Shown here: one piece after another, positions 12,800 to 44,108 of the stretch
Position numbering within the stretch: the first letter of the stretch is position 1
How the letters are laid out: each line of letters begins with the position of its first letter
NCBI GenBank assembly: GCA_025361335.1
Contig: JANYAK010000011.1
Coordinates: forward strand, 2,751-66,750
DNA: 64,000 nt
Direction: 5' to 3'
Origin: Coriobacteriia bacterium
GTDB lineage: Bacteria > Actinomycetota > Coriobacteriia > Anaerosomatales > PALSA-660
Notes under the pieces: model-generated
What the model saw: the letters and a program-made list of their open reading frames with translations, nothing else
Told to the model about the DNA's origin: nothing
Database searches by the model: none
Program-made: the position numbers and the translations under genes

Positions 12800-13348
12800 T
12801 CAGCGCGGCCCCTTCGTGAACAGGCGTATCGCCTCTAGTATCCGGGCGTCGGGGCCCGCCTCGGCTCGCGGGGTGGGTGTGATGCCGCGCTCGGCCAGGA
12901 CCGTGAGCACGGCTGCGACGGCGGCGGGAAGCGCCGCCTCCACCTCCGGAGTCAGGCCTATCTCGATCACGCTCATGTCCTTGATCTGGATGCCGATGCA
13001 CTCCGCCTCGGGGGTCGAGCCCATGAGCATGGCCGATTGCAGGACGTCCACGAAGCGGATGTCGTGCAGGGAGTGCATGACCTGGTTGTGGGCCAGATCC
13101 TCCGGAGACAGGCGAACGATCGTCCCCGGATCCTCGCCCGTGCCGTCGATCGCGTCGATGACGAGCATGTAGTCGCAGTCCCGGAACAGGTGGAGGATGC
13201 TCATCCCCATCGTGCCGACATCGACCAGCGTGACGTTGTCGGGAAAGGCGAGCGTACCCATCAGGATCTCGATGACGCGGACGCCCACACCCTCGTCCCG
13301 CACGAGCGGGTTGCCCATTCCCATGACCGTGATGCGTTCGGGTGCCAT
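12800..13348 (-). CDS. [NiFe] hydrogenase maturation endopeptidase (HyaD/HupD family)
   Basis: ITVMGMGNPLVRDEGVGVRV, DAIDG and SLHD motifs. The ATG at 13346-13348 has GGAGG 5 nt upstream. It is the last gene of the hydrogenase gene string. Confidence 0.85.
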   Translation of the reverse strand: MAPERITVMGMGNPLVRDEGVGVRVIEILMGTLAFPDNVTLVDVGTMGMSILHLFRDCDYMLVIDAIDGTGEDPGTIVRLSPEDLAHNQVMHSLHDIRFVDVLQSAMLMGSTPEAECIGIQIKDMSVIEIGLTPEVEAALPAAVAAVLTVLAERGITPTPRAEAGPDARILEAIRLFTKGPR

Positions 13349-13426
13349 CGAGCCTCCGTGTGATCGCGCGCGTGCCGACGCTGGATTGTACCGCACGCCA
13401 CCGCGAGCGCGACGCAGGGCCGCGCG

Positions 13427-14743
13427 TCAGGCGGAGGCGCACTCCGCCTGCGGGAGCGGCTGGCCGTCCAAGAGCAGCATCCGCTCAGCCGGGGACAGGG
13501 CGGCGCGTGCCTCGTCGCGCAACTCGTTGGAACCCGACAGCATCTCGCGCATCATGACGACGAGCAGGTAGCGTCCAGCGGGAGTGAGCGTGATGCACTC
13601 GTCGTCATCCCGCTCGATCCCGCCCGCGGCGCGCATGAAGGTCAGCTCAAGCCACAGCGCGCGGTCCGCGGAGACCCCGAAATCGCGTTCGAAGGCGCGC
13701 TTGTCCAACCGGAGGCCGAACAGCTGGTTGATGAAGCGGTAGCGCATCATGGCGCGGGCGTCGTACGGCTGGCCGGCGGTCGCGAGCCCCATGCATCCCG
13801 AGCGTATGGCGGCGTCGTAATCCGCCAGGGAGAACGTGTTCCCGTAGACACGATCGCCGATGAACGACAGCGCACCCGAGCCGATGCCGACGTACTGGTC
13901 GTAGTCGACGATGTACTCATCGATCATGCCGCCGCGGTCCTTCGAGAACGTCCAGGCTGACGCCGGTTCGAAGGTGCCTGAGAGAGCCTCGTCGATGAGG
14001 TGGTAGTACTCGCCTTCGCGCACGAAGTCGATGCGTCCCACGGTATCGGCCAGCGCTCGCGCGGCGTTCGGGCCGGCCATCAGCGGGTAGAAGGTCACCT
14101 GGTTGCAGCCGGTGTCCTTGAGGCGATCGATGTCCGCCAGGAGCATGCGTTCCGTCTGGCTGGGGAAGTTGAAGATCATGTCGACGTTGAGCGAGCTGAA
14201 CCAGCCCTGCGCCCGGACGATCGTCTCGTAAAGGTCCTGCCCGCTGCCATACTTGTCATACCGATCCATGACGCGCAGCAGGCGGTCGTCGAAACTCTGC
14301 ACTCCGACGGACATCCGGTCGATCCGGCCGCCGAGCCGCTCGACCACCTCCGACGTGAGGTGATTCGGGCTGGTCTCCGACGAGACTTCGCCGATGTCGA
14401 AGAGATCGCGCGCCAAGTCGATCGTCAGGCATAGTTCGTCCAAGAGGATGGTGGGCGTGCCGCCGCCGAGGTAGAGCGCGCCGAACCGGTACCCCAGGTC
14501 GGCGACCATGCGCATCTCCTCGCGCAGCCTGGCGAAGTACTGGCGCGCGAGGTCCTCACGATAGAGGAAGCGGTTGAACGAGCAGTAGGTGCACAGCCGT
14601 TCGCAGAACGGGACGTGCGCGTACAGCAGGTACGTCCGCTCGGGATCCGCGGGCGGCAGCGTCGTGAGGCTCGTGGGTTCGTGGGCCATGTAGCGGCGGC
14701 CCAAGACACGCATTGCAGCTGTCAGCGCGCGTTCGGAGAGCAT
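13427..14743 (-). CDS. HemN/HemW-family radical SAM protein (oxygen-independent coproporphyrinogen oxidase-like / heme chaperone-like)
   Basis: HVPFCERLCTYCSF (CxxxCxxC) and GGGTP motifs with a HemN C-terminal-like domain. Start at ATG 14741-14743 with GGGAG upstream. Confidence 0.8.
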   Translation of the reverse strand: MLSERALTAAMRVLGRRYMAHEPTSLTTLPPADPERTYLLYAHVPFCERLCTYCSFNRFLYREDLARQYFARLREEMRMVADLGYRFGALYLGGGTPTILLDELCLTIDLARDLFDIGEVSSETSPNHLTSEVVERLGGRIDRMSVGVQSFDDRLLRVMDRYDKYGSGQDLYETIVRAQGWFSSLNVDMIFNFPSQTERMLLADIDRLKDTGCNQVTFYPLMAGPNAARALADTVGRIDFVREGEYYHLIDEALSGTFEPASAWTFSKDRGGMIDEYIVDYDQYVGIGSGALSFIGDRVYGNTFSLADYDAAIRSGCMGLATAGQPYDARAMMRYRFINQLFGLRLDKRAFERDFGVSADRALWLELTFMRAAGGIERDDDECITLTPAGRYLLVVMMREMLSGSNELRDEARAALSPAERMLLLDGQPLPQAECASA

Positions 14744-14944
14744 GCTTGGACTCCCTGACAAAACATCGTAGGTACCGTGGGAGCGTCGCCCGGCAGCGTC
14801 ACCCTCTCCACGTGGTCCTTCTTCTGCATGAGGGGCTCGAATCCTGCCCCGCCACACGGCGGGAGGCCCGAGGAATAGCTCCCCGGACCTCCCGCTCCAG
14901 TGGCGACCGTCCCCTCGATCGGGGTCCGATCCACCACAGAGGCT

Positions 14945-15604
14945 CTAGTGCCCCTCGGGCTTCGTCTCGACCCAGGCGAACATGATCTTGGTCGGAGCGA
15001 TGCCGTGGATGTTCGCCAGGTACGCGTGCACCATGGTGAACACGATGATGATCCACATGCCGAAGTAGTGGATCATCCGCATTGCCATCAACCCGCCGAC
15101 AGCCGCGGTGCCCGCGTTGAAGAACGGCGCCAACGCCCAGTGCTGGGCGGGACCGTACAACGCGAACCCGGTGTAGGCCATCGCGTACGTGATCGGGATG
15201 GTGGCCAGGTAGGCGGTCTTCTGCAGGGAACCGTACTTCCCTGAGATGACGTGTTCCTTGCGAAGGAACAGGTAGTACTTCACGGTCTCCAGGAACTGAT
15301 GCTTGTTCTCCTTCTGAGGCAGCCAGTTCTTGATGTCGGTATCGACAACGTTGGATCCGAGGAGCAGCGCATCCTTCACCCAGAAGGAGAGGATGATCCG
15401 CGCCGTCAGGTTGATGATCAGGATGAACATCAACATGAAGTGGATCGAACGGGCCAGGCCCATGGACCAGACGAAGAACGGGTAGTGGATGAAGAAGCCC
15501 GTGAAGGCCAGACCGATCATCGAGATCAGGTTCACATAGTGAGTGAACACGAAGATCAGCGGATGCGCGGCACGGTAGTGTGCGTGTTGGGACATACCAC
15601 TCAC
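14945..15604 (-). CDS. Ni/Fe-hydrogenase b-type cytochrome subunit
   Basis: 219 aa with four TM helices and conserved His residues (HPLIFVFTHY, SIHFML, HYFGMWIIIVFTMVHAY), directly after the large subunit. An alternative ATG start lies at 15595. Confidence 0.85.
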   Translation of the reverse strand: MSGMSQHAHYRAAHPLIFVFTHYVNLISMIGLAFTGFFIHYPFFVWSMGLARSIHFMLMFILIINLTARIILSFWVKDALLLGSNVVDTDIKNWLPQKENKHQFLETVKYYLFLRKEHVISGKYGSLQKTAYLATIPITYAMAYTGFALYGPAQHWALAPFFNAGTAAVGGLMAMRMIHYFGMWIIIVFTMVHAYLANIHGIAPTKIMFAWVETKPEGH

Positions 15605-17235
15605 CTGCCTGCGGGCTTGGACATCACGAACGACTGCTTCTTAGTCTTGGGTTCTATCAACTGAACCCCGCATCCGATTCAAGGATCGAAGCTATGGACG
15701 ATCCGGAGCGCCTCGAGAGGCTTCTCGATGTCGGCGATCGGAGTGCCCACGAGCGCTTCCTCCAGCGGACCGCGGACGCCTGCCGCATCGCGCGGCGAGC
15801 AGTCCCACGTCGACGGGGAGACGACCTGATAGTTCGCTATCTTGCCGTCCTTGACGTCGATGAAGTGGCCGAGCGCGCCACGCGGCGCCTCCCACAGACC
15901 GGCACCCTGGCCGTTGGTCTCGGTGGGCTCGGTGAAGAACTTCGCGTCGCCGCCCTTGACGGCGCCGATGAGCTCCATGATCCACTCGCCCATCTTGTCG
16001 GCCACGAACTTGGCCTCGAGGTTGCGCGCCGCGAGGCGGCCGAGCAGGGAGATGAGCACCTCGGGCTTGCCCGCGACGCCGAGCGCCGTGAGCGTCGTGT
16101 CGACGAGATCCTTGACCTCGGGCACGCCGGCCAGATACGACACGAGCATGCGCGAGAGAGGCCCGGCTTCCATGGGCTTCTCGTCCAGGCGCGGAGCCTT
16201 GATCCACGAGTACTGGGCGTTCGTGTCGTACGAGGTGAACTTCGCCTGAGTCTGTCCCTGCGCCGGGTTGAGGCCGGAGGGCGACGAGTACCACGAATGC
16301 TCGACATACTCCTTGATCTTCGCCACGTCGGGCTGGACAAGCTCCAGCTTGCCGTCGAGGATCGCGCCTCGCGGCATGACGCGCTTGAGCGGGTCGAGGC
16401 TCTTGTCCTCGAACACACCCCATGAGAGGAAGTTCTTGACGCCGCCGCCATAGGTCGCGGCCTCGATGTAGAACGGCGCGATCGCCAGCGTGTCGGGGAT
16501 CAGGGCGTTCGTGATGAACTCGCTGACCGTCTTCCAGCGGAAGAGCACGTCATCGAGCTTCTCCTCGGTCGGCATCCATGCGGTGCCGCCGGGAATGGAC
16601 GTCATGAAGTGCGGGAACTTGCCGCCCATGACCGCGATGATCGCCGCGGCCTCGGCCTGTATCTCGAGCGCCTGGAGGTAGTGCGCCACGGCGATGAGGT
16701 TGAGCTCCGCCGGAAGCTTCATGGCGGGGTGACCCCAGTAGCCGTTGGTGAAGATGGAGAGCTGGCCACCCTCGACGAACGTCTTCAGCCGCTTCTGGAT
16801 CGCGCCGAAGTCGGCGACGGCCGTGCCGGCCTTCTCGGCCAGAGCATAGGTGTCGGCGATATTGGCGGACAGCGCGGACACGACGTCGACGTAATCGAGC
16901 GCCGTGAGCGTGTAGAACCACAGGATGTGGCTGTGGAGTGTCTCCGCACCCTCGATGATGTTGCGCACCAAGCGCGCGCCGTCGGGCGGGGTGACCTTGA
17001 GAGCGTCCTCCGTCGCCTTGGTGGAGGCGTGACCGTGGGAGATCGGGCACACGCCACAGATGCGCTGCGAGACGTAGTACGCATCCGCCGGCGCGCGACC
17101 CTTCAGTACGGTCTCCATGCCGCGGTAGAGACTGCCTGAGGACCAAGCGTCGGTGATGACGCCGTTCTCGACTTCGCACTCCACGCGCAGGTGACCTTCG
17201 ATTCTGGTAACGGGATCGATGATCGCTCTAGCCAC
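15601..17235 (-). CDS. [NiFeSe] hydrogenase large subunit (group 1), with in-frame TGA = selenocysteine at 15679-15681
   Basis: RIEGH and RICGVCPISH N-terminal Ni-ligand motifs are present. The track ORF stops at TGA right after RIVHSFDP. Continuing in frame gives U-IGCGVQ-LIEPKTKKQSFVMSKPAGR and a stop at 15601-15603, completing a DPUxxC site. That stop abuts the cytochrome b start. Confidence 0.8.
15649..15668 (-). promoter_or_regulatory. Candidate SECIS stem-loop
   Basis: On the mRNA, GGGUUC-AGUUGAUA-GAACCC forms a perfect 6-bp stem with an 8-nt loop, starting 10 nt after the UGA. Confidence 0.5.
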
Positions 17236-18383
17236 TAGTTATCGCCTCCCTTCGAGGCCTTGTGCTTCTTGTCCCACGCCTTCTCGGTCTCCATCGGAGG
17301 GCCGGACGTGCGTCCGGTCGCCGCGGAGGCGATACCGTGGACCAACAGACCGGCCGCGGCGGCAGCACCGACGACCGTTCCGACCGTCTCGGGGCGAACG
17401 CCGCCGAGACCGGGCAGATTGACGTCGGTCATGCGGCTCAGGAACGGCGCACTGGCGTCGACCCAGTTGGTGTAGACGTGACCGCAACCGATGCACGGCG
17501 AACCGGACTCGACGCACCAGCTGGCGCGACGGTTCCAACGCACGCTCGGACAGTTGGTCATGGTCTGCGGGCCCTTGCAGCCCATCTTGTACAGACACCA
17601 CTGCTTGACCTCGGCCTCGGTCCCGAAAGCCTCGACGAACTCGCCGTTCTCGAAGTGGCCGCGGCGCGGGCAGTTGTCGTGGATCGTGGAGCCGAAGATC
17701 AGGGTCGGGCGGTTCTTGTCGTCCATGGCCGGCAGCTTGCCCAGCAGCAGGACGTCGACGACCATCGCCACGATCCACTCCGGGTTGACCGGGCAGGTCG
17801 GCAGGTTGATGGTCTTGGCCTTGAGCTCGGGCATGACATCCAGAACGCCCTTGCCGCCGGCAGGGTTCGGAGCAGCGTTGACCCAACCGCCGTCCACCGC
17901 GCAGGACCCGACGCAGATGATCGCGTCGGCCTTGCCGGCGGCCTCCTTGAGGATCTCGAGCCCGGTCTTGCCCGCGATGCGCAGCGTGTTGCCGCCCTCG
18001 CCGGTCATGATCGCGCCCTCGACGACGAGGACGTAGCCGCCGTCGGCGATCGTCTTGGTCCTGGCCTCTTCCGCCTGCGTGCCGGCCGCGGCCATGATCG
18101 TCTCCATGTAGTTCACTGACAGCAGGTCCAGCACGATGGACGCCACATCGGGCGTATCCACCTGAGCCAGGGACTCGGTGCAGCCCGTGCACAGGCCCAT
18201 GTCGAGCCACACGGTCGGCTTGAGCTTGGCACCCGCTTCGACCGCCGATACGATCTGCGGAGCGTACATCTCGGACAGGCCGAGCAGCGCAGCCACCGAC
18301 CCGCAGTACTTCACGAAGTCGCGCCGCGACACACCCCGCGCTGCGAGGAGATCGTAGATCCCGTCTCGCACTCCTTGCGCCAT
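17235..18383 (-). CDS. [NiFe(Se)] hydrogenase small subunit, Tat-exported, C-terminal membrane anchor
   Basis: SRRDFVKYCGSVAALLGL twin-arginine signal and CTGCTES. Distal and medial cluster motifs are HDNCPRRG, CLYKMGCKGP and CPSVRWNRRASWCVESGSPCIGC. The ATG at 18381-18383 has AAGGAGG 8 nt upstream. Confidence 0.9.
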   Translation of the reverse strand: MAQGVRDGIYDLLAARGVSRRDFVKYCGSVAALLGLSEMYAPQIVSAVEAGAKLKPTVWLDMGLCTGCTESLAQVDTPDVASIVLDLLSVNYMETIMAAAGTQAEEARTKTIADGGYVLVVEGAIMTGEGGNTLRIAGKTGLEILKEAAGKADAIICVGSCAVDGGWVNAAPNPAGGKGVLDVMPELKAKTINLPTCPVNPEWIVAMVVDVLLLGKLPAMDDKNRPTLIFGSTIHDNCPRRGHFENGEFVEAFGTEAEVKQWCLYKMGCKGPQTMTNCPSVRWNRRASWCVESGSPCIGCGHVYTNWVDASAPFLSRMTDVNLPGLGGVRPETVGTVVGAAAAAGLLVHGIASAATGRTSGPPMETEKAWDKKHKASKGGDN

Positions 18384-19039
18384 CCCATACACCTCCTTGC
18401 GAAGCAACGAAAAACTTCAGTCACGTGCTCGCCGACCTCCCGCCCGTTCGGGGCAGGCGGTCCTCCCTCAGCCCCTTGCCCTCCTTTCCTGCACACACGC
18501 ATATCTCGCACAACTTTGGGCCACGGCGCCAAGACGCCGCCCGCGCCGATACGAGATCGACGGGCGGGCGGCGCGGGCCGGAACGGGCAGGGGGGCGGCG
18601 CGCCACAGCGCGCGGTGTTCGGGCAGACCTGCCCGGGGGATCATTCAAGTACCGCCCGCGACAGTGGGCCGGACGAGTCGAGCATGCCCGGCCCTGGAAG
18701 GGCGTGTCTCCCGGGTATGGTGATCGGACAGTGCGATCGAGTCGGTCCCCATGGCCCCTCGTGGATCGGCTTCGCGGTCAGGCACTGGATTGAAGTCTGA
18801 AACTTGTGGGCCTCCGAGACAATACCATTCCTCGTACGGCCTCGACCACGATGATACCTCGCCTGCGGCCAGATGGTGCATGCATGAGGAAAGGTGGTCA
18901 ACGGGGCGGCGGCAGCAGGAAGATCGGTGTAGGCGCCGAATACCGTCCATGTCGTCGCGCGGGACACCCGACCAGCGGGGATGTCGGCGCGGTCGGAGGA
19001 GGGAGGGTGAGGGTGTCAGCCGCATCGAGCGGGCTCGTG

Positions 19040-35729: not shown

Positions 35730-36752
35730 TTGTTCTTCCGGATGATCGAGAAGGAGCGGCTACCGGACCTGATCCGGGGGCTCTCGACCGAATTCGAGGT
35801 GGTCGGCCCGGTGGCGAAGGGGGACAAGTTCGTGTTCGCCCCCATCGACGACCCCGCCGACATGCGGTTGGACTACGACACGACCATCCTGCCCCCGAAG
35901 AAGTGGTTCTTCCCGCCTGAAGAGACCATGATGCGGTTCCGGGTCGCGGACAACGAGGTCGTCGACGACGAGGTCTACGCGCCTCCCCGCGTGCTGTTCG
36001 GGCTGCACCCGTGCGATATCAACAGTCTCCAGCTGATGGACAACGTCTTCTTCGGCGCGTACATCGATCCCTACTATCGCGCGCGCCGCGAGAACACCCT
36101 GATCGTCGGCCTGTCGTGCGTGCCTTCGGAGACGTGCTTCTGCAACGCATGGGGCACCGACGAGGCTCACTGGGGCTTCGACATCTTCCTTTCCGACGTG
36201 GGCGACGAGTACTTCGCGTCCATCCGCTCGGTCAGCGGCGCGGAGCTCGTCGACCGCCACGTGAAGACGCGTGAGATCACCGACAATGACACGCGGCGAT
36301 TCCAGGAGCGCACGGCCGCGTTCAAGGCGGCGTTCGAGAACCACGTGGACACGTCGCAGCTGCCGCTTCTCATCGATGCGAAGTTCGAGTCCCCGATCTG
36401 GGACCAGTTGGGCGAGAAGTGCCTTGCCTGCGGCGCGTGCTCGATGGTGTGCCCGACGTGCTACTGCTACGACGTGCACGATGAGCTCGAGCCCGACCAG
36501 ACGATGGGCCGCCGCGTGAGGACGTGGGACAGCTGTCAGTTCAAGGACTTCGCGGCGGTCGCGCACGGCCAGAACTTCCGCGACTCGCGGGCCAGCCGGA
36601 TCAAGTACCGCTATTACCACAAGCAGTGGGGGTACCTTTCGAAGTTCGAGCGCGTCCTGTGCGTCGGGTGCGGCCGTTGCTCTCGGGCGTGCAAGGCCGG
36701 CATCAATCCCGTGAAGGTCATCGAGGCTCTGCAGACAGGGGTGGTGTCCTGA
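35730..36752 (+). CDS. hydB: Group 3b (sulfhydrogenase-type) hydrogenase beta subunit, 4Fe-4S protein (AsrA-like)
   Basis: CLACGACSMVCPTCYCYD and CVGCGRCSRACKAGI. It is the first of four coupled genes in the order beta-gamma-delta-alpha. Confidence 0.75.
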   Translation: MFFRMIEKERLPDLIRGLSTEFEVVGPVAKGDKFVFAPIDDPADMRLDYDTTILPPKKWFFPPEETMMRFRVADNEVVDDEVYAPPRVLFGLHPCDINSLQLMDNVFFGAYIDPYYRARRENTLIVGLSCVPSETCFCNAWGTDEAHWGFDIFLSDVGDEYFASIRSVSGAELVDRHVKTREITDNDTRRFQERTAAFKAAFENHVDTSQLPLLIDAKFESPIWDQLGEKCLACGACSMVCPTCYCYDVHDELEPDQTMGRRVRTWDSCQFKDFAAVAHGQNFRDSRASRIKYRYYHKQWGYLSKFERVLCVGCGRCSRACKAGINPVKVIEALQTGVVS

Positions 36753-37630
36753 TGGGCGGCGTACCCAGGAGCACCATCGCCCCGGGGGATCGGACGTCGG
36801 CGGGAGTCAATCCGTACCGCCCCTGGCCGGCGCGCATCACGTCCATCATCGACCTGACGCCGCAGGAGAAGCTGTTCGAGCTGAGGCTCATCGACGAGGG
36901 CGCCCGCGCTGCGTTCGACTTCGATTCCGGACAGTTCGTCGAGCTGTCGATCTTCGGCGTGGGCGAGGCCCCGATCTCGATCTCGAGCGCGCCGTCGAAG
37001 CAGGGCTTCATCGAGCTGTGCGTGCGCAACGCCGGCGACGTCACCGGCGCCCTGCACCGCAAGCAGTGCGGCGATGTGGTCGGTCTTCGCGGCCCGTTCG
37101 GCCGTGGATTCCCCTTCGAGGAGATGAAGGGCCACGACGTCCTGCTGGTCGCCGGGGGCCTCGGCATCGCGCCGCTCAAGAGCCTCATCAACCACATCCA
37201 CGATGACCGTCATGATTTCGGCAACGTGACCATCCTCTATGGCGCCAGATCGCCGGCCGAGATCCTGTTCCGCTACCAGTTCGACGGGTGGAAGCATCGG
37301 GACGACTTCGATCTCATCCTCACGGTCGACCACCCGGACGACACCTGGGAGGGTGACGTCGGTCTGGTCACGAGGCTCTTCGACAAGATCGAGGTCGATC
37401 CCGCCAACGCGTTCGGCGCGATCTGCGGGCCTCCCGTCATGTACAAGTACGTGATCGCCGAGATGCGCAAGAAGGACATGGACGTCGACCGGATCTACGT
37501 CTCGTTCGAGCGGCGGATGAAGTGCGGCGTCGGCAAGTGCGGGCACTGTGGGGTCGGCCACCAGTACACATGCATCGACGGACCGGTATTCAACTACTGG
37601 GAAGCCATGAACCTGCAGGAGGCGATATAG
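36752..37630 (+). CDS. hydG: Group 3b hydrogenase gamma subunit (FAD/NAD(P)-binding, 2Fe-2S)
   Basis: Ferredoxin-reductase-like fold (GQFVELSIFGVGEAPISI, LLVAGGLGIAPL) with a C-terminal CGVGKCGHCGVG. Its ATG overlaps the preceding TGA. Confidence 0.8.
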   Translation: MGGVPRSTIAPGDRTSAGVNPYRPWPARITSIIDLTPQEKLFELRLIDEGARAAFDFDSGQFVELSIFGVGEAPISISSAPSKQGFIELCVRNAGDVTGALHRKQCGDVVGLRGPFGRGFPFEEMKGHDVLLVAGGLGIAPLKSLINHIHDDRHDFGNVTILYGARSPAEILFRYQFDGWKHRDDFDLILTVDHPDDTWEGDVGLVTRLFDKIEVDPANAFGAICGPPVMYKYVIAEMRKKDMDVDRIYVSFERRMKCGVGKCGHCGVGHQYTCIDGPVFNYWEAMNLQEAI

Positions 37631-38374
37631 ATGGCGCCGAGAGTCGTCGTCCTTTCTCTGGCCTCCGACTTCGGATGCCAGGTCCAGATCACCAACACGG
37701 AGGATCACCTTCTCACGATCCTTGGGCTCATCGAGCTGTCCTACTGGCAACTCGCGTCGTCGGGCCACATGCCTGACGAGTACGACGTCGCGATCGTCGA
37801 AGGCGCGGTCACGACCGACGAGCACGCTCACCTTCTGAGAGACGTGCGCGGCAAGGCGGCGGTGGTCATCGCGATCGGCGCGTGCGCCACCATTGGCGGC
37901 ATCCCCGCCCTTGCGGGCTCCGGGTCGCTCGCGGATCGATACGCCACCGTATACGGCGACGGCGTCATCGTCCCGGCGGTGCGCAGGGCTCCGGCCCCCG
38001 TCGACTCCGTCATCCACGTCGACTACCACGTTCCCGGCTGTCCTATCGACCAGAGCGAGTTTCTCCGAGTGCTGTCGCGCGTCCTTCTGGGGCTTGTGGA
38101 CCACACGCCGGACATGACGATGTGCGGGTCATGCAAGATCGCCGAGAACGTGTGCTTCTTCGACAGCGGGGTCGGCTGCCTCGGACTCGTCACGCGCGCC
38201 GGCTGTGGCGCGAAATGCCCGTCCCTCGGCCGACCGTGCACGGGCTGTCGCGGCATCGCCCCCGATGCCAACGTCGTGTCCGCGCTCGAGGTCTTCGAAC
38301 GCGCCGGCGGTGGCGCCGACGCCCTGCGCTCCGCACTCGATGTCTACAACACCGCTTCGGAGGTGCACGTCTGA
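37631..38374 (+). CDS. hydD: Group 3b [NiFe] hydrogenase small (delta) subunit
   Basis: LASDFGCQ, GACATIGGIP and HVPGCP motifs plus a C-terminal Cys cluster CGSCKIAENVCF...CLGLVTRAGCGAKCPSLGRPCTGC. Confidence 0.8.
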   Translation: MAPRVVVLSLASDFGCQVQITNTEDHLLTILGLIELSYWQLASSGHMPDEYDVAIVEGAVTTDEHAHLLRDVRGKAAVVIAIGACATIGGIPALAGSGSLADRYATVYGDGVIVPAVRRAPAPVDSVIHVDYHVPGCPIDQSEFLRVLSRVLLGLVDHTPDMTMCGSCKIAENVCFFDSGVGCLGLVTRAGCGAKCPSLGRPCTGCRGIAPDANVVSALEVFERAGGGADALRSALDVYNTASEVHV

Positions 38375-39636
38375 TGGCGAACCTGACCGTCGAGCACGTC
38401 GCTCGGATCGAGGGGCACGGCAACATCTCTGTGAGCGTCGAGGAGGGTGTCGTCCGCGACATCCAGATGGACGTCGTGGAGCCCGCGCGGTTCTTCGAGT
38501 CGATGGTGGTCGGCCGACGCTTCGAGGACGCGCCTCTGATCACGTCCCGGATCTGCGGCATCTGCTCCCCCAACCATGCGCTGACGTCGATCAAGGCGGT
38601 GGAGGCGGCGTTGGGAGTCGAGGTCTCCGAGCGCACCAGACTGCTTCGCACGCTGCTGGTGTACGGCTCGTATCTCCAGAACCACGCGACACATCTGTAC
38701 GTGTTCGCCGCTCCGGACTTCGTGGGACTGCCCAATATCTTCCCGCTCGCGCAGACGCACCCCGATGTCGTGGGCCGGGCACTCAAGATCAAGAAGCTCG
38801 GCAACGAGCTGTGCAACCTCGTGGGCGGGCGTTCCGTCCACCCCGTGACGGCCGTTGTCGGCGGGTTCACGTCCGAACCGAGCAGCAGAGACCTGTCCGC
38901 CATGCGCGCCCGGTTGCGAGATATCGTCGGCGACGCTCTGGCGACCGTGGATCTGTTCGCGTCGTTCAAGGTGCCGGACTTCGATACGGCGGGCGAGATG
39001 CTCGCTCTGACCTCGCCGACGGAGTATGCGATCTACGACGGCGACGTCACGGCGCTCGACGCCGGTTGGACCCGCCCGGCGGCCGACTATCACGACACCC
39101 TGCGTGAGAGCATCGTCGGCCACAGCAACGCCAAGCATTCGACGGTCGGCGGCAGGCCCTTCCTTGTGGGAGCGGTGGCCCGGATGAACCTGAACGCGCA
39201 GCGTCTGGGTGCTCGGGGGCGAGACGCACTCGAGGCCTCCGGGCTGGTGCTGCCCACGCGCAATCCGTTTCACACGCACGTGTGCCAGGCCGTCGAGCTC
39301 GTCGACGCGGCGGAGCGGTGCGCTGGCTACATCGACCGACTGATCGGTTCTGACGGGTCGTCGGAGCCTGTGGCCGTCGACGTTTCGGCCGGCACCGGTG
39401 CCGGCGCCACGGAGGCGCCCCGCGGCACGCTGTACCACTCGTACTCGATCGGCGATGACGGTCTCATCACGAAGGGCGACGTCATCACCCCGACGGCGCA
39501 GAACCTCGCGAACCTCGAGGCGGACATGAGGGCGTTCGCCCCTACGGTCGCCGATCGGCCGAGGGAGGAGTTCGTGCTCCTGATCGAGGAGCTGGTCCGC
39601 TCGTACGACCCATGCCTTTCCTGCGCGGTCCACTAA
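38374..39636 (+). CDS. hydA: Group 3b [NiFe] hydrogenase large (alpha) subunit
   Basis: VARIEGHG, RICGICSPNH and the C-terminal SYDPCLSCAVH, followed directly by TAA. Confidence 0.85.
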   Translation: MANLTVEHVARIEGHGNISVSVEEGVVRDIQMDVVEPARFFESMVVGRRFEDAPLITSRICGICSPNHALTSIKAVEAALGVEVSERTRLLRTLLVYGSYLQNHATHLYVFAAPDFVGLPNIFPLAQTHPDVVGRALKIKKLGNELCNLVGGRSVHPVTAVVGGFTSEPSSRDLSAMRARLRDIVGDALATVDLFASFKVPDFDTAGEMLALTSPTEYAIYDGDVTALDAGWTRPAADYHDTLRESIVGHSNAKHSTVGGRPFLVGAVARMNLNAQRLGARGRDALEASGLVLPTRNPFHTHVCQAVELVDAAERCAGYIDRLIGSDGSSEPVAVDVSAGTGAGATEAPRGTLYHSYSIGDDGLITKGDVITPTAQNLANLEADMRAFAPTVADRPREEFVLLIEELVRSYDPCLSCAVH

Positions 39637-39803
39637 ACGATGGACGCGCGTCGCGCGTGATGGTTGAATGACTCAATCCCGACGCGACAGGGCTGAAGGA
39701 ACATCGTCGCCGACGACGAATAGTGGGGAATACCATCCGGCCCGAGGGGGCGCGGAGGCCAGGATCCTGCGATAGCGGTCGGCGAGCAAGCGGCATGACA
39801 ACG

Positions 39804-39833
39804 GCGCTCTCCGCGCATATCCGCGGAGAGCGC
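39804..39833 (+). other. Perfect 12-bp GC-rich inverted repeat/hairpin in the hyd-rnf spacer
   Basis: gcgctctccgcg-catatc-cgcggagagcgc, ending 43 nt upstream of the rnfC start. Confidence 0.6.
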
Positions 39834-39875
39834 TGGCGCCCTAAGACATGTTCTTCCGACGAGAGGGGTGAGCAC

Positions 39876-41189
39876 TTGGCGGTTCGGTTGTTCCGGGGCG
39901 GGGTGCATCCGCCGGACCGAAAGGAAGCGACCGCTTCCCAAGCCGTCGCTCGGGCGCCGCTGCCCGAGCGCATCGTGCTGCCGATGAGCCAGCATCTCGG
40001 GGCGCCGTGCCAGCCTCTGGTCGCCAAGGGCGATCGGGTGAGCCGAGGCCAGGTGGTCGGGTCTGTCGACGCGATGATCAGCGCGCCCGTCCACTCGCCG
40101 GTCTCCGGTGAGGTCGTCGATGTTGCGAAGGCGCTCACACCCAGCGGGGCGCGCGTGATGTGCGTCCACATCCACCCCGATGCGGACCAGGACCTCGCGA
40201 CGTTCGTGCCCATAGACGCCGCTGCCGACGATGTGGCCGCCATTGCTCGCGCGGCCGGAGTCGTCGGACTCGGTGGCGCCGCGTTTCCGACGTCGGTGAA
40301 ACTCGTGCCGCCGAAGCGCTCGCCGATCGACACGCTCATCCTCAACGGCTGCGAATGCGAGCCGTTCCTGACATGCGATCACCGGGTGATGATCGAGAGC
40401 GCCGACGCCGTCGTGGCGGGAGCCGCGCGGATCGCATCCGCAGTGGGCGCGAAGCGTGTCGTCGTCGGTGTCGAGGACAACAAGCCCGACGCCTTGGAAG
40501 CCCTGCGCAAGGCAGTGTCGGAGGCCGGGGCCGACATCGAGACGGTCGGCCTTCCGACACGATATCCCCAGGGCGCGGAGAAGCAGCTCATCTTCGCGCT
40601 CACGGGCCGAGTCGTGCCGCAGGGGCAACTGCCCTCGTCCGTGGGCGTGCTCGTCCACAACGTCGGCACCGCGGTCGCGATCCACGAGGCCGTCGCGTCG
40701 CGCAAGCCGCTCATGGAGCGGGTCGTCACGGTCGCGGGGGCGGTGGCTCAGCCGGGCAACTTCCTGGTGCTACTGGGCACTCCCATCTCCGACCTGATAG
40801 AGGCGGCGGGCGGGCTCGTCGGAGACGTCGGGCGCATCGTCGCCGGCGGGCCGATGACCGGGCAATCCCTCGCTTCGCTCGACGTGCCCGTCGTGAAGGG
40901 GACGTCCGGAGTCGTCGTTCTGACCGCCGAGGAGTCGGCGCCGCATGTCGACGGCGATCAGCCATGCATCCGTTGCGGGCGCTGCGTCGAAGCCTGCCCG
41001 ATGGACCTGCACCCCTTCGCGATCGCGTCACATGCCGACCGGCGCATGTGGTTCGGCGTCGAGCGCTTCCATGGCCTGGACTGCATCGAATGCGGTTGCT
41101 GCAGCTACGTGTGCCCGACCCGAAGGCCGCTGGTCCAGCTGATCAAGTCGGGCAAGTCGGCCCTGATGGTGAAAGGGGTGAAGCGGTGA
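39876..41189 (+). CDS. rnfC: Rnf electron transport complex subunit C
   Basis: RLFRGGVHPP N-terminus and GLGGAAFPT. Ferredoxin motifs CIRCGRCVEACP and CIECGCCSYVCP. TTG 39876 has GAGAGGGG upstream. Confidence 0.9.
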   Translation: MAVRLFRGGVHPPDRKEATASQAVARAPLPERIVLPMSQHLGAPCQPLVAKGDRVSRGQVVGSVDAMISAPVHSPVSGEVVDVAKALTPSGARVMCVHIHPDADQDLATFVPIDAAADDVAAIARAAGVVGLGGAAFPTSVKLVPPKRSPIDTLILNGCECEPFLTCDHRVMIESADAVVAGAARIASAVGAKRVVVGVEDNKPDALEALRKAVSEAGADIETVGLPTRYPQGAEKQLIFALTGRVVPQGQLPSSVGVLVHNVGTAVAIHEAVASRKPLMERVVTVAGAVAQPGNFLVLLGTPISDLIEAAGGLVGDVGRIVAGGPMTGQSLASLDVPVVKGTSGVVVLTAEESAPHVDGDQPCIRCGRCVEACPMDLHPFAIASHADRRMWFGVERFHGLDCIECGCCSYVCPTRRPLVQLIKSGKSALMVKGVKR

Positions 41190-42241
41190 GCGATCGGTCC
41201 AGTCCCGCGGGAGTCGCCGCCTCACACGTCGTCGGGCCGGCTCCCCACATCGCCGCGCCCCTCAGCTGCCGACACATCATGCTGTGGGTCATCGCGGCTC
41301 TGGCGCCCGCCGCTCTGTGGGCGATCGGGAACATGGGCGCGCCCGCCATCGTCACTTTCGGCGTCGGCATCGGCTCGTGCGTTCTCACGGAGTTCGCATG
41401 GAACGCGCTCCTCAAGCGCACGCAGACCATCGGCGACATGTCCGCGGTCGTCACGGGCATGCTTCTGGCGATGTCGGTCCCCCCACGCACTCCCTGGTGG
41501 ATCTGCATGGTGGGCGGCATCGTGGCCATCGGTCTCGCGAAGATGCTCTTCGGTGGGCTCGGGTTCAACCTGTTCAATCCGGCACTCGTCGGCCGCGCCA
41601 TCGTCATGATGTCGTGGCTGGGGGTCATGTCGGAGATCAAGACCCCTGCGGGCGTCCCGGCTCCCGGAGGCTGGTTCGCGGCGTTGTCCGTGCCCGCCTC
41701 CGGCAAGCTCGACGCCATCAACGGCGCGACGCGGCTGGCCATCGCCGCCGCGGACCGAGCCGGCAACGGCGGATATGCGTACGATCTCGCGAAGCAGTAC
41801 GGACCGTTGCTGCTGAGGAACCTCGAGGGCTCGCTCGGCGAGGTGTCCGCGGGGCTGCTGATCCTGGGTGGGCTCGTGCTGCTGGCCCGCGGCATCATCG
41901 ATTGGCGCATACCGGTCGGCTACATCGGGTCCGTCGCCGCGCTGTCGTGGGCGTTCGGCTCCGACCCCATCTTCAATGTGCTCGCTGGAGGCGTGCTCCT
42001 CGGGGCGTTCTTCATGGCCACCGACTACGTCACATCCCCGATCACCCGCAACGGGCGCCTCGTGTTCGGCATCGGGTGCGGGGTCTTCAACATCGTGACG
42101 CGCTTCTTCGGACCGATGCCCGAGACGACCACGTTCGCGATCCTGTTCATGAACGGGCTCGCCCCGCTGATCGACCGCATGTTCATGCCCAAACCCTTCG
42201 GCTATCTCAGGCCCGCGAAGGCGGTGAAGGCAGATGCTTAG
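41186..42241 (+). CDS. rnfD: Rnf complex subunit D
   Basis: Polytopic membrane protein with GGLGFNLFNPALVGRA and FFMATDYVTSP (FMN attachment region). GTGA overlap with rnfC. Confidence 0.9.
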   Translation: MSDRSSPAGVAASHVVGPAPHIAAPLSCRHIMLWVIAALAPAALWAIGNMGAPAIVTFGVGIGSCVLTEFAWNALLKRTQTIGDMSAVVTGMLLAMSVPPRTPWWICMVGGIVAIGLAKMLFGGLGFNLFNPALVGRAIVMMSWLGVMSEIKTPAGVPAPGGWFAALSVPASGKLDAINGATRLAIAAADRAGNGGYAYDLAKQYGPLLLRNLEGSLGEVSAGLLILGGLVLLARGIIDWRIPVGYIGSVAALSWAFGSDPIFNVLAGGVLLGAFFMATDYVTSPITRNGRLVFGIGCGVFNIVTRFFGPMPETTTFAILFMNGLAPLIDRMFMPKPFGYLRPAKAVKADA

Positions 42242-42839
42242 GCTCTACATGAGGCTCGGGATCCCTGTGCTGGTCGTGTGCATCGTCGCCGCGGCCGGCC
42301 TCGGTGTCACCTACGCCATGACGAAGGACAAGATCGCCGCCCAGGACCGCGAGGCGAAGGCGAAGTCCTTGCGCATCGTCCTGGGGCGTGCGAAGTCCTT
42401 CGTCGAGCTCGACGCGAAGAAGGACGCCGTTGTCTACGAGAAAGCCACGGCGGCCGCGGTGGACGTCCGTGTCGACGGTCTGTTCCGCGCCCTCGACGGC
42501 ACCGGCGCCCAGGTCGGTTGGGGCCTGCTCGTGGCTCCCCGCGGCTACGGCGGACCGATCTCGATGGCTGTCGGCGTGGATAGGAACGGGAAAGTCACTG
42601 GCGCTACGATCGCGTCGATGAACGAGACGCCGGGTCTCGGCACCAAGGTGATCACGCAGAAGGACTGGCTGCCACGGTTCTCCGGACTGGACACGTCGGC
42701 AGGGACCGAGTCGGTCAGGAAGATCGACACGATCATGGGCGCGACCAAGTCGTCACGCGGGGTCCGCAAGGGCGTCGGGGCGGCCGCGGCCATCTACACG
42801 GATGTTCTCAAGAGTCTTGAAGGGGGGAGCGGGCAGTGA
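42234..42839 (+). CDS. rnfG: Rnf complex subunit G (FMN-binding)
   Basis: N-terminal TM helix, ETPGLG and ATKSSRGV (covalent-FMN Ser/Thr context). Confidence 0.85.
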   Translation: MLRLYMRLGIPVLVVCIVAAAGLGVTYAMTKDKIAAQDREAKAKSLRIVLGRAKSFVELDAKKDAVVYEKATAAAVDVRVDGLFRALDGTGAQVGWGLLVAPRGYGGPISMAVGVDRNGKVTGATIASMNETPGLGTKVITQKDWLPRFSGLDTSAGTESVRKIDTIMGATKSSRGVRKGVGAAAAIYTDVLKSLEGGSGQ

Positions 42840-43486
42840 AGGAGTGGATGAGAGTCCTGAGAAACGGCCTGTCGCTCGAGAACCCGCTCACCGTGCTGAT
42901 GATCGGACTGTGCTCGACGCTCGCGGTCTCCACGAAGCTCGAGGGTGCCTTCTTCATGGGCATCGGCGTGATCTTCGTGCTCGTCATGAGCAACGTGCTC
43001 ATCGCCGCCGTGCGCAAGTTCACACCCGACGAGGTGCGCATCCCGATATTCATCGTGATCATCGCGTCGTTCGTGACCATCGTCGACCTCGTGATGAAGG
43101 CGTACCTGCCGAGCGTGTATTCGTTCCTGGGTGTGTGGATCCCGCTCATCGTGGTCAACTGCATCGTCTTGGGGCGCGCGGAGGCCTTCGCCTATCACAA
43201 CACGGTGTGGCTCTCGGTCGCGGACGGCATCGGCATGGGCCTCGGCTACACGGTGATCATCGCCGGGCTGGCCGCCTTCCGCGAGCTGTTCGGGAGCGGA
43301 CAGCTGCAGTTCCTCGGGGCGACACTGGTGACCATGCCGGCCTTCTACCGGCCGCCCAACATCCTGTTGCTCTTCCCGGGCGCCTTCATCCTGTTCGGGC
43401 TGATCATCGCCGGATCGCAGGCGCTGAACCGCCGGATCGCGGCGAAGGACGCGGCGCAGGCTGCTTCGCTGAAGGAGGCGGTGTGA
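42836..43486 (+). CDS. rnfE: Rnf complex subunit E
   Basis: NPLTVLMIGLCSTLAVS and GVWIPLIVVNCIVLGRAEAFA motifs. Confidence 0.9.
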   Translation: MKEWMRVLRNGLSLENPLTVLMIGLCSTLAVSTKLEGAFFMGIGVIFVLVMSNVLIAAVRKFTPDEVRIPIFIVIIASFVTIVDLVMKAYLPSVYSFLGVWIPLIVVNCIVLGRAEAFAYHNTVWLSVADGIGMGLGYTVIIAGLAAFRELFGSGQLQFLGATLVTMPAFYRPPNILLLFPGAFILFGLIIAGSQALNRRIAAKDAAQAASLKEAV

Positions 43487-43487
43487 G

Positions 43488-44108
43488 ATGAGCGGCGTCG
43501 CGCAGTTGATGCTCCTGTTCATCGGGGCCGCACTCGTCAACAACATCCTGCTCACGAGGTTCATCGCTCTGTGCAGCTTCTTCGGCATCTCCAACGACAT
43601 GCACACGTCGATCGGCATGAGCCTGGCGGTCATCTTCGTGATGATGATGGCGTCCACCGCCACCTGGATGTTCTACTACTTCCTTCTGAAGCCGCTCGGG
43701 GTGGGGGAGTTCCTCTACATCCCCGCCTTCATCCTCGTCATCGCCGCCCTGGTCCAGTTCGTGGAGATGTACTTGCGCAAGTACAGCCCGGCGCTCTACC
43801 GCGCCATGGGCATCTACCTGCCGCTCATCACGACCAACTGCGCCGTGCTCGCGGCGGCTACCGAGGCCGTGAAGCCCGGCTTCTTCAAGATGGGGATCGC
43901 GTACAACTTCACCCTCGGCGAGAACCTGATCTACACGCTGGGTGTCTCGTGCGGCTACGGCTTCGCGTTGCTGTCGTTCACGGCGATGCGGGAGCGCCTC
44001 GAGCTGGCGCAGGTGCCGGAATGGCTCAAGGGCTCGCCCATGGCGTTCATCACCGCGGGCCTGCTCACGCTCGGCTACATCGGTCTCGGCTCGCTCTTCG
44101 GGCTGTAG
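43488..44108 (+). CDS. rnfA: Rnf complex subunit A
   Basis: ALVNNILLTRFIALCSFFG and GIYLPLITTNCAVLA motifs. Confidence 0.9.
   Translation: MSGVAQLMLLFIGAALVNNILLTRFIALCSFFGISNDMHTSIGMSLAVIFVMMMASTATWMFYYFLLKPLGVGEFLYIPAFILVIAALVQFVEMYLRKYSPALYRAMGIYLPLITTNCAVLAAATEAVKPGFFKMGIAYNFTLGENLIYTLGVSCGYGFALLSFTAMRERLELAQVPEWLKGSPMAFITAGLLTLGYIGLGSLFGL

Follow-up and report, generated by a model that had tools for sequence, protein, structure and literature searches.

A hairpin that follows an in-frame UGA in a Coriobacteriia [NiFe] hydrogenase gene is very probably a selenocysteine insertion element

The stretch of DNA analysed here, hereafter the window, comprises 64,000 nucleotides (nt) of a Coriobacteriia bacterium (contig JANYAK010000011.1, positions 2,751 to 66,750) and contains a gene for the large subunit of a [NiFe] hydrogenase which is interrupted by an in-frame UGA and, shortly after it, can form a small hairpin. 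The question raised by this locus is whether the UGA is decoded as selenocysteine (Sec) and whether the hairpin is the selenocysteine insertion sequence (SECIS) that would direct this decoding. The analyses presented below make it very likely that the hairpin is a functional bacterial SECIS, situated within the coding sequence for the large subunit of a Sec-containing Group-1 [NiFe] hydrogenase, and we infer that SelB binds it and that Sec is inserted at the window UGA. Positions are numbered on the window and the hydrogenase locus is read on the minus strand. The elements in question are the following.

15601 to 17235, minus strand: hydrogenase large-subunit gene with UGA read-through (PF00374, E = 9.6e-170)
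15682 to 15687, minus strand: GAU CCU codons directly 5' of the UGA, a conserved rare-codon context
15679 to 15681, minus strand: in-frame UGA, the U of DP-U-IGC-GVQ, from translation and orthologue alignment
15669 to 15678, minus strand: 10-nt spacer AUCGGAUGCG, the Ile-Gly-Cys codons and the first base of Gly, from the sequence
15663 to 15668, minus strand: 5' arm of the SECIS stem, GGGUUC, from folding (columns 29-34 of alignment A2, see below)
15655 to 15662, minus strand: apical loop AGUUGAUA, with G at position 2 and then U, from sequence and folding
15649 to 15654, minus strand: 3' arm of the SECIS stem, GAACCC (codons Glu-Pro), from sequence, folding and alignment

Up to the UGA the open reading frame (ORF) extends from 17235 to 15679, and when it is read through it ends at a TGA located at 15603-15601 (minus), giving the translation ...VHSFDP-U-IGCGVQLIEPKTKKQSFVMSKPAGR-stop. 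The PF00374 domain then displays both Ni-binding motifs, QRICGVCPISH at the N-terminal side (RxCGxCxxxH) and FDP-U-IGC at the C-terminal side (DPUxxC), the read-through translation indicating that the UGA stands for the first Cys of the C-terminal motif DPCxxCxxH. DNA of orthologues was retrieved by exact look-up of proteins and from collections of genomes and metagenomes, resulting in 46 loci of the UGA type (42 distinct sequences), which are part of more than 100 UGA-type members in public data, and 116 loci of the Cys type (95 distinct sequences). The Sec codon aligns with TGC or TGT (Cys) in the latter and with TGA in the former. At the protein level, UGA-type loci are 43-84% identical to the window, and where a source is named it is mostly a metagenome-assembled genome of Coriobacteriia. 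In all 46 of them the 75 nt after the UGA are in frame and xGCxV[H/Q] is kept, the read-through frame retaining the fourth Ni-ligand Cys together with a C-terminal extension that has its homologue in Cys-type enzymes. Public gene callers stop at the Sec codon, as indicated by the 120 best database homologues, 119 of which are called as ending ...DP (all but three at ...SFDP), the remaining one being frameshifted; many of the 120 are named "[NiFe] hydrogenase large subunit" without any Sec flag.

On the minus strand the region reads ...UUC GAU CCU UGA AUC GGA UGC GGG GUU CAG UUG AUA GAA CCC AAG... and the hairpin consists of a perfect Watson-Crick stem of 6 bp closed by an 8-nt loop, 10 nt 3' of the UGA, a spacer length found in 46 out of 46 UGA-type loci. 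This is exactly the structure that a preliminary description of the locus had reported at 15649-15668. The same description had assigned the stem to codons for a Cys-Gly-Val and a Glu-Pro stretch, which has to be amended for the Cys codon: the stem begins one base into the Gly codon and Cys lies outside it. When folded in isolation, the hairpin has a free energy of -8.1 kcal/mol, with values of -9.5 for a 36-nt segment and -10.5 for a 48-nt context. It is the minimum-free-energy (MFE) structure in a 55-nt context and is included in the MFE structure in 8 out of 10 contexts whose length was between 48 and 503 nt, its pairs having probabilities of 0.82-1.00. A second small stem of 6 bp, formed by UUCGAU (15690-15685) and AUCGGA (15678-15673, minus) with the UGA in its loop (CCUUGA), was present in the MFE structure of a 91-nt cut (15600-15690), a segment which is not unusually stable overall (z = 0.14). 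This UGA-enclosing stem (15673-15690) was not supported by the comparison with orthologues, in which 79.5% of cells pair without any two-sided change.

The bSECISearch model of bacterial SECIS elements (Zhang and Gladyshev 2005), in the form in which it is quoted in Fig. 2 of PMC13188914, specifies a loop of 3-9 nt, a stem of 4-16 bp, a G at loop position 1 or 2 that is mostly followed by G or U, a distance of 16-37 nt between UGA and loop, and an MFE of -7.5 kcal/mol or lower. The preliminary description had placed the size and position of the hairpin in the bacterial range, and the values found here fall within every one of these limits: 8 nt and 6 bp for loop and stem, a loop starting with A-G-U, 16 nt from UGA to loop (15678-15663), which is the lower limit, and -8.1 kcal/mol for the hairpin alone. 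After maximal loop closure, a G is found at loop position 1 or 2 in 38 of the 38 distinct UGA-type sequences tallied.

The window has a GC content of 67.5%, and perfect 6-bp hairpins with loops of 3-9 nt start at 0.43% of its positions. Such a hairpin lies within the SECIS-permitted distance of 7.3% of the TGA trinucleotides of the window, a figure that is reduced to 4.6% when a G in loop positions 1-2 is included, and the signal beyond chance comes from codon usage and from orthologues. The hairpin is spelled with GTT, TTG, ATA and GAA, codons that represent 3.8%, 8%, 7% and 16% of their synonymous families, respectively, in 35 window genes and that are used 1, 1, 2 and 4 times in the 518 upstream codons of the same gene. 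The joint probability of these four codons, given the amino acids, is 3.4e-5, and this rare-codon spelling is a first sign of selection. A related bias concerns the codon just before the Sec/Cys position, which is CCT in 41 out of 46 UGA-type loci versus 7 out of 116 Cys-type loci, CCT accounting for 7.5% of the Pro codons in the window; this enrichment suggests that the sequence 5' of the recoded UGA is under selection.

The pattern GGTTC-N6-8-GAACC, for which 0.13 occurrences are expected in the window, was found twice, the SECIS included. The other occurrence, GGTTC-ACGTCC-GAACC (38864-38879, plus strand), forms a 5-bp hairpin resembling the SECIS stem inside a second hydrogenase large-subunit gene; it was judged to be due to chance, its codons reading G-F-T-S-E-P with no UGA upstream. 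A search for other recoded UGAs in the window yielded nothing but neighbouring genes in the same frame and GC-rich artefacts out of frame.

In order to compare the stems of UGA-type and Cys-type genes, pairs were counted in the same register as in the window. All six pairs are formed in 33 of the 42 distinct UGA-type sequences versus one of the 95 Cys-type sequences, and five of the six in 5 out of 42 versus 10 out of 95, with a median of 3-4 pairs in Cys-type sequences; expressed as paired cells, this corresponds to ca. 90% for the UGA type versus ca. 53% for the Cys type. The remaining four UGA-type sequences (L011, L012, L014 and L015) have an equivalent hairpin whose register is shifted by one base, UGUCC-ACGUGGU-GGACA, which folds at -8.4 to -12.9 kcal/mol and is extendable to GUCCAC-GUG-GUGGAC. 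These sequences form a clade of Coriobacteriia in which the residues are AVHVVDT (VVDT for VIEP), the hairpin being located ca. 30 nt after the UGA, and this clade would be an example of structural turnover under constant function. Pairing is thus retained, in one register or the other, in the orthologues that keep the UGA, its loss there being what the preliminary description had named as a refutation, and the hairpin is strictly associated with the UGA across orthologues. The MFE of the 36-nt segment also differed significantly between Sec-type and Cys-type sequences; this measure was dropped as a poor discriminator in GC-rich DNA, in which Cys-type sequences reach -14 kcal/mol via other pairings.

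Compensatory changes provide further evidence. Alignment A2 contains 43 distinct UGA-type sequences and is unambiguous because the region is ungapped. Over a structure of 7 pairs, 89.4% of its cells are paired and the covariation score is 0.169 as compared to 0.048 +/- 0.014 in shuffles, with none of 500 shuffles reaching 0.169 and slid registers giving at most 0.051. The covariation of the two arms, which had been put forward earlier as a check, was found in two pairs with compensatory changes from G-C to C-G: 25 sequences have G-C and 9 have C-G at pair 29-48, the corresponding numbers at pair 30-47 being 28 and 11. All switches couple a wobble base on one side of the stem to a nonsynonymous base on the other (Gly GGG with Pro CCC, Ala GCG with Pro CCG, Gly GGC with Arg CGC), a coupling that protein constraints cannot produce. 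When placed on a neighbour-joining tree of the large subunit, they amount to at least seven independent switches among three fully paired arm states. RNAalifold applied to the 39 sequences sharing the common register returned exactly this hairpin, at -9.25 kcal/mol.

Silent sites point in the same direction. The stem Val is encoded by GTT in 38 of 42 UGA-type versus 19 of 95 Cys-type sequences, and the Glu position by GAA in 38 of 42 versus 13 of 95. His is encoded by CAC in all 36 UGA-type His codons versus 46 of 95 in the Cys type, and the loop Val by GTG in 35 of 42 versus 39 of 95. The spacer Gly codon of UGA-type sequences varies freely at its wobble base (GGC 18, GGT 8, GGA 7, GGG 7), which indicates that the set has diverged at silent sites and therefore that the conservation is specific to stem and loop. 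The hairpin is maintained by compensatory and synonymous-site selection.

Several observations weigh against the hairpin being a SECIS. Taken alone, a hairpin of this kind has a chance of ca. 5% (about 1 in 20) of occurring after any TGA, and the evidence from the single sequence is weak because 4.6% of the window TGAs precede a comparable hairpin. It is not the MFE structure in the 91-nt cut (15600-15690), which is the segment that the preliminary description had named for folding, or in cuts of 83-93 nt, in which a pairing of GCGGGG with a downstream CCCGC is better by 0.3-1.3 kcal/mol; the thermodynamic expectation is thus borne out in most contexts but not in that one. Consensus folding of all 43 UGA-type sequences returned no structure, because four of them are register-shifted. 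The loop of the window is the most derived variant, in which the A-U closing pair is lost and the GU has moved by one position. No Rfam family matched the window at gathering thresholds or the region 15500-15800 at E <= 10, a result that is expected and has no bearing on function because bacterial SECIS elements, according to the literature behind the SECIS model, share no common sequence. Finally, selA, selB and selD were not found in a Pfam scan of the 59 ORFs of the 64-kb window, and a tRNA-Sec gene was found neither in the window nor in 21 related loci.

That no gene of the Sec machinery was found in the window is the point which speaks for an explanation without SelB, according to which the hairpin would assist read-through or pausing at the UGA, either by near-cognate insertion of Cys or Trp or by a pause timing Ni insertion or folding. 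Downstream structures stimulate stop-codon read-through in other systems, and this also counts in its favour. Such a role is nevertheless improbable. All UGA-type sequences (100%) have the G/GU loop signature of SelB-dependent SECIS elements, the hairpin agrees with the SelB-type model in spacing and size, and the silent sites of the loop are conserved (e.g. CAC GTG ATT); together, the conserved signature and silent sites point to sequence-specific recognition and are hard to reconcile with a mere mechanical block. Sec at the same Ni ligand is, moreover, established for other [NiFeSe] hydrogenases (PMC13582414).

The complementarity of the arms could also arise simply from conservation of the protein motif (G/A-V-H ... 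E-P) and be devoid of any function in the RNA. About half of the stem is indeed imposed in this way: pairs 31-46, 32-45 and 34-43 are forced by the motif V-[H/Q]-x-x-E-P, being fixed by positions 1 and 2 of the codons for Val, His/Gln, Glu and Pro. The average of 3-4 pairs in Cys-type sequences is explained by these three, and a few Cys-type genes of Coriobacteriia reach 5-6 of the 6 pairs, as do 11 distinct Cys-type sequences in total. The statement of the preliminary description that complementarity is not forced by the protein therefore applies to three optional pairs, while about three of the six are forced, and its view of Glu-Pro as non-conserved has to be abandoned, Glu occurring in 38 of 42 UGA-type sequences. 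The other three pairs, set by the wobble base or by the choice of amino acid, carry the signal; they are made in 33 of 42 UGA-type sequences whereas all six occur together in a single Cys-type one. The by-product explanation is further contradicted by wobble bases covarying with amino-acid changes over at least seven independent switches, by the four rare codons of the hairpin at 67.5% GC, and by the one-base-shifted hairpin, which is kept despite the replacement of VIEP by VVDT. It is largely refuted by these data and we regard it as highly improbable. The SECIS seems to have been built on pre-existing partial complementarity, which has also been proposed for Group-4 Sec-hydrogenases (PMC13582414).

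The neighbouring genes on the same strand fit a hydrogenase operon with small subunit, cytochrome b and maturation protease.

17235 to 18407, minus strand: hydrogenase small subunit gene (PF01058 and PF14720)
14945 to 15604, minus strand: b-type cytochrome subunit gene (PF01292), with a likely ATG start at 15595-15593
13427 to 14857, minus strand: radical-SAM protein gene, between the cytochrome b and HycI protease genes
12800 to 13396, minus strand: HycI-family hydrogenase maturation endopeptidase gene (PF01750, E = 1.6e-27)

The orthologues of the cytochrome b begin with MSH.AHYREAHP. The suggestion that the UGA is a true stop and the hairpin an intergenic terminator, an mRNA-stabilising stem or a translational-coupling element preceding cytochrome b would agree with public gene calls ending at the UGA and with a hairpin about 55-85 nt upstream of the next gene, but is extremely improbable given the 75 nt in frame in 46 out of 46 loci that encode the indispensable fourth Ni-ligand Cys and a homologous C-terminal extension, the lack of a T-run after the stem, and the absence of the hairpin from Cys-type operons having the same gene order.

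Some other features of the locus are worth recording. The read-through stop of the large subunit (15603-15601) lies inside AGGUGAG, a Shine-Dalgarno-like sequence located 6 nt upstream of the likely ATG of cytochrome b (15593-15608, minus), and this overlap suggests that the two genes are translationally coupled, in a way that would require Sec to be inserted successfully. The radical-SAM gene is in the same frame as the protease ORF, from which it is separated by a TGA and 10 codons; at the orthologous locus L161, which is 85% identical, a methyltransferase gene occurs after cytochrome b instead of a radical-SAM gene. The window also contains a second hydrogenase cluster, of the cytoplasmic type, at ca. 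35730-39636 (plus), composed of a Fer4_22 protein, a NAD-binding/FeS protein, a small subunit (37631-38374) and a large subunit. The latter is of the Cys type and ends with ...SYDPCLSCAVH-stop, without C-terminal extension. Genes of an Rnf complex (39723-44108) come after this cluster.

With the hairpin read as a SECIS, the course of events at the window UGA may be outlined as follows. A ribosome nearing the UGA would meet the hairpin 10 nt downstream of that codon, with a loop starting 16 nt after it, and the hairpin, located at the mRNA entrance by the time the UGA occupies the A site, would most likely not yet have been unfolded. Its G/U-containing apical loop would be bound by the C-terminal winged-helix domain of SelB carrying GTP and Sec-tRNA(Sec), and the ternary complex tethered in this way at the A site would cause the UGA to be decoded as Sec instead of as a stop. 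The ribosome would then melt the hairpin, translating G-V-Q-L-I-E-P and completing the C-terminal peptide, which the HycI-type protease encoded downstream would presumably remove after Ni insertion. SelB-dependent recoding of this kind is summarised in PMC10778597; the mechanism is a textbook one, but neither the lineage nor this particular hairpin family seems to have been curated. For annotation, the reading frame of the large subunit should be extended past the UGA as far as 15601; virtually all public gene calls of the family are truncated at ...SFDP. The result extends [NiFeSe] hydrogenases to Group-1 enzymes of the Coriobacteriia type, and the family represents an unusually clean natural data set of covariation in a coding-region SECIS.

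Three variants of the loop occur in UGA-type sequences, namely ACGUGAUU in the majority, AGGUCAUU and AGUUGAUA. The third is that of the window and of loci L161 and L162, the second is found in the sister loci L001, L163/164 and L171/172, and the other UGA-type loops read ACGUG... The same loci, i.e. the window, L161, L162, L001, L163/164 and L171/172, have a Gln (CAG, 15663-15661, minus, in the window) in place of the final His of DPUxxCxxH, so that this motif ends neither with His nor with Arg in the window large subunit. The Gln carriers are monophyletic and comprise six distinct sequences, His being present in the other 36 UGA-type and in 95 out of 95 Cys-type distinct sequences. The change from CAC to CAG also places a G at position 2 of the SECIS loop. 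The His that is replaced is one that we take to be a ligand of the proximal Mg/Fe site. The final His (or Arg) of the motif has been described as the cleavage site of the maturation protease.

Further away, six loci (L021, L069, L092, L100, L120 and L159) with 43-58% identity to the window possess a near-identical hairpin, (C/G)GGUUC-ACGUGAUU-GAACC(G/C/A), and are interleaved with Cys-type lineages of Nitrospirota and Deltaproteobacteria in the neighbour-joining tree. Such interleaving would fit Sec being ancestral and having reverted repeatedly to Cys, or a lateral spread of the C-terminal module. The nearest named relatives of the window enzyme are from Coriobacteriia and its nearest Cys-type relatives are enzymes of Eggerthellaceae. 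A broader and rather speculative proposal, which we consider possible though on balance doubtful, can be built on these observations: the almost invariant GGUUC-ACGUGAUU-GAACC after DP-UGA would mark a large unannotated radiation of Sec-containing Group-1 enzymes, in Coriobacteriia and scattered lineages, standing outside the canonical [NiFeSe] enzymes, with RNA and protein having co-evolved in the subclade of the window. As part of this same tentative proposal, the interleaved pattern would imply an ancient Sec state followed by repeated Sec-to-Cys reversion, or a lateral spread of a "Sec cassette". Regarding co-evolution, the change from CAC to CAG in the loop may have exchanged an invariant C-terminal His for Gln, in which case the RNA signal may have reshaped a residue adjacent to the active site. 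HydDB places a Coriobacteria-affiliated hydrogenase lineage in Group 1i without listing Sec variants there, such variants being listed only for groups 1a, 3a and 3c, and a 2026 review describes [NiFeSe] hydrogenases as exclusive to sulfate reducers and methanogens. In the full-text literature, NiFeSe together with Coriobacteri* gave nothing beyond the HydDB paper.

With respect to known systems, the hairpin differs from the bacterial SECIS model in having its spacing at the lower limit and in lacking a lower stem or internal loop. In the SECIS of Escherichia coli fdhF, which has been defined by experiment, the minimal upper stem-loop that binds SelB presumably lies ca. 11 nt after the UGA and exposes a G and a U in its loop; the spacer of 10 nt and the GU in the loop make the window hairpin similar to it, and the GGUC of variant AGGUCAUU (L001, L163 and L171) is that which we take to be present in the fdhF loop. 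Unlike the fdhF element as we take it to be, the window hairpin has no bulged U, another stem sequence and an 8-nt loop in place of a tetraloop, and no sequence homology was found between the two hairpins. At the protein level, the window enzyme resembles the [NiFeSe] hydrogenases of Desulfovibrio vulgaris Hildenborough and Desulfomicrobium baculatum (PDB 2WPN, 1CC1) in having Sec at the first Cys of DPCxxCxxH. It differs from these canonical enzymes by the Gln that replaces the final His and by being closer to standard Group-1 [NiFe] hydrogenases, its large subunit scoring 463 bits with 3MYR and 455 bits with 4U9H (standard [NiFe]) versus 323 with 2WPN and 305 with 1CC1. Going by these bit scores, it lies outside the canonical Desulfovibrio/Desulfomicrobium [NiFeSe] clade, and the same assignment was rejected for the distant UGA-type loci L159 and L069, which are also closer to standard [NiFe] enzymes. 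A further parallel at the level of the RNA concerns Sec-containing Group 4 [NiFe] hydrogenases, whose hairpins, found in the ca. 50 nt that follow the UGA, have a G at loop position 1 or 2 in 100% of cases, and whose Cys-type relatives retain SECIS-like stems but lose the loop G (PMC13582414, 2026); as in that group, the Cys-type relatives of the window gene keep partial stems.

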